Below are positions 1 to 8,579 of a DNA stretch of 64,000 nt, piece by piece. Numbering within the stretch: position 1 is the stretch's first letter; each line of letters opens with the position of its first letter. The position numbers and the translations under genes are program-made. Source of the stretch: an uncultured Nitrospiraceae bacterium (GTDB lineage Bacteria; Nitrospirota; Nitrospiria; Nitrospirales; UBA2166); NCBI GenBank assembly GCA_964463965.1, contig CAYXED010000004.1:124758-188757 (forward strand). Reading direction: 5' to 3'. The notes beneath the pieces are model-generated. The model was not told where the DNA came from and did no database searches. It saw nothing but the letters and a program-made list of their open reading frames with translations.

Positions 1-1637
1 GGAAACCACTTTGTTTTTTTACCTGTGTTGGTGTTGAGATAATATGCAGCGGCCCACCCTGCCGTTGCGGCTCCAATTCCAATACCTACCCACAGTAAAC
101 TTGTTGTCGGGTGAATTACGTTAACTGAATTGTCTGTTTGTGGTGATAAAACTGGAATGAGCATTTCAGATATCCCATTCCATGCCAGTGAGAGCACTAT
201 GCCAGACCCCATTATAGCACTTAAAATAGTTAGTATGGTCTTCACTGCCATTATTTTTGGCGTTGGAGACATGGCGTGTTGTGACAAAGAGGCCCATTCC
301 CTTGACACAGGGTTTTTAGAAATCGATGTAATAAGATGGTAAAGATAGTACGCAGTAAAAAATACGGTGATTCCTGTGAGAAAGAGGAAGGATAGTCCTG
401 CCGGATGAGAAAAATTTGCTACCCACAATTTTTCGTATGGTCCCGAAAACAGTATGACTGGTGGAATTAGAGCTAAGACCAGTGCTTGAAAAGAGAGATG
501 CCCTGGTGGTTTTGAGGTATCGTGAGTCTCATAGTGCTTTTCAGAAAACTGTATCGTATTACCGGTTGAGAGAAATAGATAGGCTTTGAATGCTCCATGG
601 GAAAGCAAATGAAATGTAGCAGCTATGAAGGCACCTACACCACAGGCGAACATCATAAACCCAAGTTGACTAATTGTAGAAAATGCAAGAATCCGTTTAA
701 TATCGGTTTGAGTAAGTGCAACTATAGCCCCAACGAGAGCAGTTATTCCTCCCACAAATGCAATGAATGTGAGCACAGATGGTGTGAGTGAGAACATGGG
801 ACTTAGTCTAATTATGAGATACACTCCTGCATTTACCATGGTGGCCGCATGTATTAGCGCAGATACAGGCGTTGGAGCCTCCATTGCAGACGGTAACCAA
901 CCTTGGAATGGAAATTGAGCCGATTTTCCCATCGCACCGATGAATAGAAAAAAACAAATTATAGTTAAAACAGAAACATGCCATTCTCCACCAAACGAGC
1001 CTGCTAGGTTGATGGTATGAGTCGAAACTTCAGGGGCTAATGAGATGATTTTCCCTATATGAAGTGTCCCAAAAGCTCCAAAAGTTAGCACGATTCCAAA
1101 CAATAGCCCTATATCAGCGAAGGCATTTACAAGAAATGCTTTTGTCGCTGCACGTATTGCAGATGGCCGTTCTGACCAGAAACCAATTAACAAATATGAG
1201 CAAATACTCATTATTTCCCAGAACACAAATAGACCAAATAGATTGTTGCTTAATATCACCATAATCATGGAAAAGGTGAACAAGGTAATCAAACCAAAAA
1301 ATTTTGCGTGTCTAGCATCTCCCTGCATATAACGGGAAGAATACATATGAACTAATAAACTGATTCCAGTTACTAGGAGTAAAAGAAGAATGGAAAGGCG
1401 GTCAAAATATAGAGTGATATCAACGCTAAATGTTCCTAGATGTATTAATTGGTATAGTGTGATATCGATTGAGCCGTTTCGAAGGATGTCAATACACGCT
1501 ATAACAGAAAGTACAAACGAAGCTGTGATCGCAGGGACACTGATATGCTGGCTTCGCTCCTTAAGCCATCGGCTCCCTATAAAAATTACAAAAAATGCAA
1601 TGAGCGGAAAAGTTGGAATGAGGATGTATGGCGACAT
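1..1637 (-). CDS. NuoL/MrpA/DabB-like proton-translocating antiporter subunit (PF00361), 3' end outside window
   Basis: Not in ORF track (no stop in window). Translated by hand from ATG 1637: MSPYILIPTFPLIAF...FVFWEIMSICSYLLIGFW...GAMGKSAQFPFQGWLPSAMEAPTPVSALIHAATMVNAG...HLLSHGAFKAYLFL, classic NuoL/ND5 motifs; frame spot-checked near positions 1-60 and 480-600. Confidence 0.9.
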   Translation of the reverse strand, partial: MSPYILIPTFPLIAFFVIFIGSRWLKERSQHISVPAITASFVLSVIACIDILRNGSIDITLYQLIHLGTFSVDITLYFDRLSILLLLLVTGISLLVHMYSSRYMQGDARHAKFFGLITLFTFSMIMVILSNNLFGLFVFWEIMSICSYLLIGFWSERPSAIRAATKAFLVNAFADIGLLFGIVLTFGAFGTLHIGKIISLAPEVSTHTINLAGSFGGEWHVSVLTIICFFLFIGAMGKSAQFPFQGWLPSAMEAPTPVSALIHAATMVNAGVYLIIRLSPMFSLTPSVLTFIAFVGGITALVGAIVALTQTDIKRILAFSTISQLGFMMFACGVGAFIAATFHLLSHGAFKAYLFLSTGNTIQFSEKHYETHDTSKPPGHLSFQALVLALIPPVILFSGPYEKLWVANFSHPAGLSFLFLTGITVFFTAYYLYHLITSISKNPVSREWASLSQHAMSPTPKIMAVKTILTILSAIMGSGIVLSLAWNGISEMLIPVLSPQTDNSVNVIHPTTSLLWVGIGIGAATAGWAAAYYLNTNTGKKTKWF

Positions 1638-1640
1638 AAA

Positions 1641-8500: not shown

Positions 8501-8579
8501 CTTTCTCCGATAACTCCTCACGCGAGAGGTGAGAGGGTTCTGCTCTAGTATTTTCTTTCAGTTCGGCTTTCAAAAGCAT
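5547..8579 (-). CDS. dabA: DabA/MpsB-like inorganic-carbon transporter subunit (DUF2309, PF10070)
   Basis: FCIDVRSE, LFCGHGS, NNPYAAALDCGACGG (Cys/Asp/His/Cys Zn ligands), RPEWGL, PYHEPMRL motifs; about 1010 aa. Confidence 0.9.
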   Translation of the reverse strand: MLLKAELKENTRAEPSHLSREELSEKVRLASESIAFNWPMRMFASRNPLMGYENISFYDAIRRAGDLTGGRGYLPNEQYRELLTKGQITLDDLKHSLAFNINENDLKHTIQVGPRIITKQEIMLLHLVHGFEVIDPELFLWKVKNTYGVSRFRENVPKHTQALLTEKTSESHFVTSLWKHTLHIFECRDPFGEAMFDNSNDKLAASEIELSTTNQGNDRATTQEQGATGLVKTLGERVHHLTKINVVEHINDQMAKWCAAFLDEGLSDWKMPDREHGFYEAWRQCSQRDFSTKFIGANNRYTKIKEECPHPETFIIRTLTELGIPETHWQEYLTRHMAQLPGWAGFIRWRSEKPEYLPQAQYPITLVHYLAVRLFYEATLIQAICEQDLGCNGTLKALDTIEDQKHVEQTETGADQNMTKICHDAWRFFHIIQFLGLSIEEFQWIVPEDACKIIQWLNEFPLEQHGPVWLCAHERHYRNQLLSRLKTRRALSASSNERRPDAQATFCIDVRSEPFRRHLEAQGNYETAGYAGFFGAPIYYKSLEKEEVLPLCPVLFSPKKSVVEIPRKGQNIEHFVVGSMWNNLGHQLFHTLKSHPLTSYVLVDILGFLFGLMLLGKTIAQRPYRKLSGWIHKYFLPYLSTVIPIETQTEHTQEETKKTPSIPYGFTLQEQAQMVENGLRLTGLTQNIARIVLFCGHGSTTDNNPYAAALDCGACGGSHGGPNARVLTQMANNPQVRGEMQSRGIKIPDDTWFVAGQHDTTIDEVRLLDHNDIPETHQVDIDQLERALKVAGKHVAMERLKRLPNAPAVSDPDDATAHVMSRSCDWAQVRPEWGLSGNASMIIGKRSLTTELQLDGRTFLHNYHDDQDQKGEALEIIMTAPLVVAEWISYQYYFSTADPWVYGSGSKVLHNVVGKIGVMLGTQSDLQTGFPLQTVNDGKAPYHEPMRLLVIIQAPTKRILSIIDRHTVLQHYFNNQWLHLLALDSDTNTFHQYHPGGTWSQLLEDSEVKT

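Follow-up and report, generated by a model that had tools for sequence, protein, structure and literature searches.

A ten-gene operon that joins DabA to Mrp-type and complex I-type membrane subunits in seven bacterial phyla probably encodes a large ion-driven inorganic-carbon pump

Vectorial carbonic anhydrases (CAs) of the DAB type are represented by DAB2 of Halothiobacillus neapolitanus, composed of DabA2 and DabB2 (PDB 9rd0; PMC13144422), by MpsAB of Staphylococcus aureus, and by DAB1 of Thermocrinis albus and H. neapolitanus, composed of DabA, DabB and DabC (10.64898/2026.05.01.722082); the two DAB structure papers describe two- and three-subunit complexes only (PMC13144422; 10.64898/2026.05.01.722082). 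DAB2 is driven by H+ and is independent of Na+ (PMC13144422), and MpsAB has been argued to use Na+. Here we describe a head-to-tail row of ten genes, all on the minus strand, in the order dabA>mrpE>mrpF>mrpG>DUF4040>mrpB>mrpC>mrpD>nuoL-like>nuoM-like, in which a DabA gene is followed by genes for Mrp antiporter-type and complex I-type subunits. The row begins within a stretch of 64,000 nucleotides, hereafter the window, which corresponds to C4:124758-188757 in the 1.89-Mb genome (98% complete) of an uncultured, small-genome Nitrospirales bacterium. Among the openly accessible papers searched, none was found to link DUF2309/DabA to an Mrp operon, and the layout, which recurs in seven phyla, probably specifies a large inorganic-carbon pump that is driven by ions and has not been described so far.

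The genes were named from the open reading frame (ORF) listing and from Pfam and NCBIfam scans (Table 1). With the likeliest start codons, the junctions are overlaps of 1-11 nt or gaps of 2-3 nt, the gap from mrpD to the nuoL-like gene being 3 nt and the alternative ATG of mrpE at 5544 giving a 2-nt gap after dabA. The original prediction, made from the window alone, of one operon with junctions of 0-8 nt is thus borne out by the abutting and overlapping genes and by their conserved order, the distances being essentially right. It had counted two PF00361 subunits, whereas the operon encodes three antiporter-like subunits of this family, MrpD and the NuoL-like and NuoM-like proteins, the NuoL-like gene being cut by the edge of the window and the NuoM-like gene lying beyond it. 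Clear constraint was found in all ten proteins, and the Mrp motifs are kept in the small subunits. Profile scans of the ten products gave no match to NuoA, B, C, D, H or I, and a test for membrane-bound hydrogenase (MBH) or membrane-bound sulfane reductase (MBS) found no [NiFe]-hydrogenase-like or sulfane-reductase module with an MbhM-like anchor, the common parts being only the DUF4040 protein (MbhD/E-like) and the Mrp-like small subunits.

The gene arrangement is conserved far beyond chance. Scanning of species-representative genomes yielded over 570 loci that encode DabA, the best 80 of which were fetched for comparison, and synteny was determined by tblastn with the ten window proteins in the loci having at least 9.4 kb downstream of dabA (n = 64). 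All nine downstream genes were found in the same order in 61 of these loci (Nitrospirota 24, Acidobacteriota 15, Pseudomonadota 7, Nitrospinota 6, Planctomycetota 3, Myxococcota 2, Binatota 1 and unlabelled 3), and in the other three, insertions displace the last genes beyond the flank; a survey of PF10070 genes beside Mrp subunits, proposed as a check of the original prediction, has thus found the linkage in seven phyla. The ten-gene set is also present in three gene-called contigs, from a small-genome metagenome-assembled genome (MAG), Nitrospina sp. 32_T5 and Stieleria varia. Trees of the individual subunits agree with one another, indicating that the block has been inherited and transferred as a unit, and its carriers include heterotrophs (Planctomycetota, Bryobacterales, Myxococcota and others). 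Within the window's own order, Nitrospirales, in which the source genome represents a family of its own, DabA occurs in 72 of 75 sampled genomes and MrpE in 42 of 121; dabA is directly upstream of mrpE in 13 of 26 loci with the cluster-type mrpEFG-DUF4040-B genes, and four Nitrospiraceae have Mrp genes in another order, with another MrpE subtype and no adjoining dabA. Apparent DabA-MrpE, MrpD-NuoL and other fusions were rejected as artefacts of frame-blind ORF choice in high-GC loci.

Like DAB2 and MpsAB, the operon encodes a PF10070 subunit with the same four Zn ligands. In a sequence search, DabA of the window matched DabA2 of H. neapolitanus (9rd0_A) with an E value of 1.6e-108, the similarity being segmental, and the ligands C351/D353/H524/C539 of DabA2 align to C509/D511/H699/C714, which are invariant in all 70 orthologues used for the DabA residue counts. 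The C/D/H/C ligands that had been recognized from the window alone therefore coincide with those of 9rd0, and the catalytic site is intact as judged from this alignment. Also as in DAB2 and MpsAB, a membrane-inserting hairpin carries an acidic residue at the position of DabA2 Glu444; the hairpin stretch contains the most hydrophobic 19-mers of DabA and matches the membrane-entering 'finger/elbow' of DAB2 and DAB1, and its Asp606 (codon 6768-6770), which aligns to Glu444, is kept in 70/70 sequences. The AlphaFold2 (AF2) model, predicted like that of the NuoL-like subunit as a single protein, has a predicted local distance difference test score (pLDDT) of 73.8, and Foldseek found no significant match to it in a PDB copy to April 2026 that evidently lacked 9rd0. 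In a DabA tree rooted at the midpoint only, the 80 Mrp-linked DabAs form one clade (SH-like approximate likelihood ratio test, 87), outside which the dabB-adjacent DabAs lie and whose first branch comprises the window DabA and that from one small-genome MAG; DAB1-like DabAs are nearer this clade than the short, two-gene DAB2-like ones. The Mrp-linked DabAs are about 1000 aa long, with 43-60% identity inside the clade, and homologues of about this length are known by name from Nitrospirales, Nitrospina, Pirellulales and others.

For the NuoL-like protein, TIGR01974 scores in nine genomes separate three classes, namely, true NuoL (690-810 bits), the cluster NuoL-like proteins (452-477) and DabB (200-370). 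A maximum-likelihood tree of PF00361 proteins was built from 13 true NuoL, 13 DabB taken from beside canonical dabA, nine cluster NuoL-like, two MrpA-type (S. aureus MnhA2 and one Binatia homologue) and two further PF00361 proteins of the source genome, with NuoM as outgroup. In this tree, the phylogeny against DabB, MrpA and NuoL that had also been proposed as a check, the NuoL-like clade (support 100/99) is sister to DabB (98/93), lying beside and not within the DabB clade, and true NuoL forms its own clade (100/98); forcing the NuoL-like proteins with true NuoL costs 8.3 log-likelihood units (approximately unbiased (AU) test, p = 0.034). Like DabB, the NuoL-like proteins (n = 68 for residue counts; E. 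coli NuoL numbering) are without K399 and D400 of transmembrane helix 12 (TM12): position 399 is Lys in 0/68, being Pro, Ser, Ala or Thr instead, and position 400 is Tyr in 67/68. They keep E144, D178, K229, H254, K305, H334, H338 and K342, and in the window protein E141, D175, K238, H343, H347 and K351 are kept, with P400 and Y401 in place of the TM12 Lys/Asp. The partner subunit of DAB2 and MpsAB is likewise NuoL-derived, without the TM12 Lys/Asp and with K229, H254, K305, H334, H338 and K342; unlike it, the presumed partner here keeps the TM5 Glu (68/68, versus Gln, Ile or His in DabB), a full or extended lateral helix and TM16. In DAB2, the essential Glu444 of the DabA2 hairpin takes up the position of NuoL K399/D400 (PMC13144422). 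Because the TM12 Lys/Asp pair has been lost from the NuoL-like protein and the invariant Asp606 of DabA is found at the Glu444 position, DabA is predicted to dock on the NuoL-like subunit, and this correspondence is the strongest evidence for the docking site.

Beyond E. coli position 500, the NuoL-like proteins continue for 142-225 aa, whereas this C-terminal stretch measures 55-70 aa in DabB, 111-117 aa in ordinary NuoL and 147-152 aa in NuoL from '2M' complexes. The AF2 model shows a lateral helix region at 561-636 (a 61-residue helix at 561-621 and a short helix), then TM16 at 640-665, and in Foldseek searches the whole model superposes on full-length NuoL/ND5/NdhF1. In complex I, a lateral helix this long reaches across two or more antiporter-like subunits. 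Retention of the TM5 Glu and of the long lateral helix suggests that the NuoL-like protein holds the NuoM-like protein, MrpD and the small Mrp subunits together in a single arm. Its identification as a plain complex I NuoL was rejected, the two nuo-type clusters of the genome being located elsewhere and having other PF00361 types. These clusters (C2:115082-122557 and C4:95341-104649) are both without a canonical NuoL, and their order, in which NuoJ and NuoK precede two PF00361 proteins (the first of about 490 aa, the second of 586-622 aa, with an 80-aa protein between them) and NuoM copies and NuoN come last, resembles 'Green'/2M-type complex I; the DabA-Mrp operon holds the only NuoL-type gene of the genome.

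The relation of the operon to the Mrp (CPA3) antiporters (6z16, 7qru and 7d3u) and to the 'group 3' clusters of cyanobacteria and Nitrospira lies in MrpB-G and homologues of the MrpA C-terminus, with the motifs P-x3-D-R of MrpF, TLTPGT of MrpE and DYR..D..E of the MrpA C-terminus in common; P27/D31/R32 of MrpF are at least 95% conserved in 80 orthologues, and MrpD groups with S. aureus MnhD2. MrpB-G are all encoded, and a full-length MrpA is not. In alignments, the DUF4040 protein matches the C-terminal part of MrpA from the Dietzia and Anoxybacillus structures (about 604-761 in 7d3u and 657-805 in 6z16) and also subunits D and E of MBH/MBS. The NuoL-like protein scores 256 bits with MrpA models that have cut-offs above 900, and 153-161 bits with MrpA in the PDB versus 250-277 with NuoL/NdhF1; no second gene for an MrpA-type N-terminal module was found in the operon by profile scans. 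As far as these alignments and profile scores go, MrpA is split, not missing, its C-terminal domain being the DUF4040 gene product and the place of its N-terminal module being taken by the NuoL-like protein, so that the absence of a canonical MrpA noted originally holds for the full-length protein but not for its C-terminal domain. Since there is no other such gene in the operon, the Mrp part would depend on the NuoL-like protein for an N-terminal module. Unlike the Mrp antiporters, the present system thus has a split MrpA whose antiporter module is replaced by a NuoL/DabB-type subunit, an added NuoM-type subunit, the permuted order EFG-A'-BCD-L-M and an attached CA-like subunit.

With moderate confidence, we propose that the products of all ten genes assemble into a single membrane complex, which would constitute a third, far larger class of DAB-type vectorial CA. 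The predicted arm is redox-free and of the complex I/Mrp type, in which MrpE/G/F would be followed by DUF4040/MrpB/MrpC, MrpD, the NuoM-like and finally the NuoL-like subunit, whose long lateral helix and last TM helix would tie the arm together. DabA would be placed on the cytoplasmic face of the distal NuoL-like subunit (the DabB equivalent), with its hairpin pushed into that subunit and Asp606 standing in for the lost TM12 Lys/Asp, by analogy to Glu444 in DAB2. Cations, whether H+ only or in H+/Na+ exchange, may then flow down their gradient via the three antiporter-like channels and the Mrp Na+/H+ module, and may gate or pull the Zn-dependent hydration of cytoplasmic CO2, the bicarbonate thereby being trapped in the cell, out of equilibrium. 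We infer Na+ coupling only from the relatedness to Mrp and from the fact that many carriers live in saline habitats. Compared with DAB2 and MpsAB, the complex would be built from ten genes versus two, with seven genes between dabA and that of its presumed partner, where a two- or three-gene dabA-dabB operon would place them together, and would have two more intact antiporter-like subunits and six Mrp small-subunit genes. With DAB1, it would share a third membrane subunit that occupies the NuoM position beside the NuoL-like one; however, DabC is short or degenerate and non-conducting, whereas the NuoM-like protein is of full length with all canonical channel residues (E142, K222, K253 and E395), and beyond it the arm would extend to MrpD and the Mrp module.

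In the cyanobacterial NDH-1MS, reportedly (Schuller and co-workers, 2020), a Zn-dependent CO2-hydrating protein is placed on the distal NuoL-type subunit of a complex I-like arm. The proposed complex would be similar in concept to NDH-1MS and NDH-1MS', with CupA/CupB on NdhF3/NdhD3 or NdhF4/NdhD4, but CupA is unrelated to DabA, and NDH-1MS is driven by ferredoxin-plastoquinone redox chemistry; as there is no redox module here, only ion gradients could supply the energy. More tentatively, and with more doubt than belief, we speculate that the three intact antiporter-like subunits mechanically link CO2 hydration by DabA to an exchange of Na+ for H+ at the Mrp end, as in a redox-free counterpart of complex I and NDH-1MS, so that a Na+ gradient, or Na+ export driven by the proton motive force, directly powers bicarbonate accumulation; the two- and three-subunit DABs might then be reduced descendants or close relatives of this larger complex, which would itself be the evolutionary link between Mrp antiporters and vectorial CAs.

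The proposal of one complex has to be weighed against the operon encoding two machines, a DAB1-like trimer (DabA, the NuoL-like protein as DabB and the NuoM-like protein as DabC) and a separate 'mini-Mrp' Na+/H+ antiporter (MrpE, F, G, DUF4040, B, C and D), co-expressed for one physiology in which Na+ extrusion alongside CO2 hydration would sustain Na+/bicarbonate symport and handle the released protons. We regard this as unlikely, though as a serious contender. DabC of DAB1 occupies the NuoM position (10.64898/2026.05.01.722082), and in DAB1-like loci of Nitrospirales a degenerate PF00361 protein is the product of the third gene. A Na+-cycle module would fit the SulP/BicA-like gene that directly precedes dabA in 38/50 loci, yet the source genome is without any SulP. 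The variants L092 and L067 combine DabA with several PF00361 genes and no small Mrp genes in the stretch covered, and insertions between dabA and mrpE are tolerated, whereas the order mrpD>nuoL-like>nuoM-like is invariant. The Mrp-like module of MBH (PDB 6cfw was among the matches) has a single antiporter-like subunit, and mrpEFG-DUF4040-BCD could stand alone; against this, characterised Mrp needs the MrpA N-terminal module, which only the NuoL-like gene could supply. Furthermore, the NuoL-like protein retains the TM5 Glu lost in DabB, and its lateral helix region is at least as long as that of complex I NuoL, which spans two subunits, exceeding by 28-110 aa the need for NuoM alone. Apart from the MBH precedent, other observations weigh against a single complex with DabA on its distal subunit. 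A frame-aware check found no in-frame fusion between any of the ten genes, and dabA and the NuoL-like gene are at opposite ends of the operon. In the Nitrospirales loci other than the 13 with adjoining genes, dabA and mrpE are separated by an htrA-like gene or by a canonical dabB-dabA locus, and in one genome (G120) the cluster-type mrpE (C1:1129791) and the sole listed DabA of Mrp-linked size (1393165) are about 260 kb apart and, from these coordinates only, possibly unlinked. The pLDDT over the lateral helix is low (40-60); the sister relation to DabB comes from limited sampling (no cyanobacterial NdhF3/F4 and only two MrpA-type sequences), with long DabB branches and an AU p value of just 0.034; and the NuoL-like proteins and DabB have no indels in common and, beyond the loss of K399/D400, only three shared derived residues.

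The original prediction was of a hybrid complex in which DabA replaces the usual input module; a hybrid DabA/Mrp-type complex is still the best reading, but the sister relation to DabB, the loss at TM12 and Asp606 place DabA on the distal NuoL-like subunit. The alternative geometry, with DabA at the proximal MrpE/DUF4040/MrpB-C end in place of a hydrogenase or quinone module, driving or sensing the arm, would agree with dabA directly adjoining mrpE in most loci and with the peripheral module of MBH, MBS and complex I being at the non-distal end. We nevertheless consider it improbable: no NuoH/MbhM-like or NuoA-like docking subunit is encoded, the complementarity between the hairpin residue and the Lys-less TM12 indicates the NuoL-like protein, which is the sister of DabB, and CupA of NDH-1MS is also located on the distal NdhF3. 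Least probable of all, and scarcely tenable in our judgement, is an ordinary 'group 3' Mrp antiporter for salt or alkali stress with extra MrpA/D-like genes and dabA as a mere neighbour. The genes were so annotated by Daebeler et al. 2020 (PMC7784846) and in a 2025 comparison of Nitrospirales (PMC12342949), and the lineages are mostly marine or saline, but the DUF2309 gene was considered in neither paper. The linkage of dabA in 61/64 loci of seven phyla, the dedicated DabA clade, the DabB-type changes in the NuoL-like protein and the use of another MrpE subtype by Nitrospirales with differently ordered, dabA-less Mrp genes all argue against it.

The source genome encodes one DabA and an ATP-citrate lyase, and from the presence of the latter, autotrophy by the reductive tricarboxylic acid cycle (rTCA) is inferred. 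Neither a beta-CA (PF00484) nor an alpha-CA (PF00194) was found in this genome, gamma-class CAs not having been searched for, and there is no SulP homologue. The source organism presumably lives as an rTCA autotroph and relies on the DabA-Mrp system for its bicarbonate; the complex, as the sole recognisable alpha/beta-type CA and inorganic-carbon system, would feed the bicarbonate-using carboxylases of the rTCA and limit CO2 loss. The suggestion that the machine serves an autotroph thus fits this genome but not the system in general, which has heterotrophic carriers. The rTCA is also the route of CO2 fixation in Nitrospira and Nitrospina, which are the chief nitrite oxidisers in the oceans, in soils and in treatment plants; little is known of how they acquire inorganic carbon. 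If our proposal is correct, the block would be an energised CO2-trapping system of these bacteria, here the only one, and the reading of these genes as a salt-stress antiporter in the Nitrospira literature would be corrected. In the abundant heterotrophs (Planctomycetota, Bryobacterales and Woeseiaceae), it would provide bicarbonate for anaplerotic reactions, as does MpsAB. It would further represent a natural experiment on long-range coupling in the complex I superfamily, with a redox-free arm having CO2 hydration as its input or output, and suggests how the DAB pumps arose.

Related loci show further variation around dabA. A 514-aa HtrA/DegP-like protease gene, as judged from sequence, lies between dabA and mrpE in one Nitrospirales family (L086:3708-5252), and an opposite-strand canonical dabB-dabA locus occupies this place in other family members (L133, L153 and L158), which indicates that many such genomes hold both DAB types side by side. 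A DabA gene is flanked by four PF00361 genes without small Mrp genes in L092:2938-12140(-), and in L067:4390-9800 dabA is followed by a nuoM-like gene, a nuoL-like gene and the contig end. In Nitrospirales DAB1-like loci, a gene for a membrane protein of about 437 aa lies between dabB and dabA (L085:16068-17381(-), L088:6261-7568, L093:6248-7594 and L096:12378-13697(-)); two of these four proteins barely pass the PF00361 cut-off (23-28 bits), the L085 copy aligns to residues 281-387 of the NuoM-like protein, and the protein looks like a degenerate NuoM, fitting DabC at the NuoM position.

Table 1 Features of the DabA-Mrp operon (window positions unless a locus is named).
Feature	Position	Strand	Description
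dabA	5547..8585 (TTG 8585; alternative ATG 8579)	minus	1012 aa; PF10070, 870 bits; CA-like catalytic subunit
Zn-ligand codons of dabA	6444..7061 (C509 7059-7061; D511 7053-7055; H699 6489-6491; C714 6444-6446)	minus	Predicted by alignment to DabA2
Membrane 'finger/elbow' hairpin of DabA	6675..6866	minus	Residues 574-637; AF2 helices 574-596, 598-620 and 623-637
mrpE	5059..5586	minus	175 aa from GTG; PF01899, 1.6e-28; TLTPGT motif conserved
mrpF	4793..5059	minus	88 aa; PF04066; mean identity 72% across 80 orthologues
mrpG	4449..4793	minus	114 aa; PF03334; TIGR01300 above cut-off
DUF4040 gene	3916..4452	minus	178 aa; PF13244 and PF20501; NF009159, 144.9 bits (cut-off 141), a model that did not discriminate in control genomes; MbhD+MbhE equivalent
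mrpB	3467..3934	minus	155 aa; PF04039, 2.6e-23
mrpC	3100..3516	minus	138 aa, NuoK-like; PF00420; NF005621
mrpD	1641..3110	minus	489 aa; PF00361; NF009305; canonical channel residues E141, K222, K253 and K399 all present
NuoL-like/DabB-like gene	1..1637, continues past base 1	minus	666 aa in full, first 545 in window; PF00662 and PF00361; TIGR01974, 488 bits (cut-off 407)
NuoM-like tenth gene	L001:10832-12334, outside window, 60 nt after NuoL-like gene	minus	500 aa; TIGR01972, 603 bits
Candidate sigma-70-like promoter	8642..8671	minus	TTGACC-18-TATGAT, 10/12 match; upstream of dabA; sole candidate

The promoter candidate comes from scans of the region for promoters and terminators, neither of which gave more sites in total than expected from shuffling. 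Upstream of dabA on the minus strand are genes for a PstS-like phosphate-binding protein (PF12849; 8933-9916) and a phosphate-selective porin O/P (PF07396; 9979-11442), both unrelated to carbon uptake, and a convergent glnS lies beyond the NuoM-like gene. In 38 of 50 related loci (L007, L009, L011, L012, L019, L053 and others), the gene directly upstream of dabA, on the same strand, encodes a BicA-like SulP protein of about 545 aa (PF00916 and STAS). Directly after its NuoM-like gene, the nearest relative that has a long contig carries a gene of the P-II family (PF00543; L002:20612-20929), which recalls the SbtB-type regulators of bicarbonate uptake and is absent from this place in the source genome.

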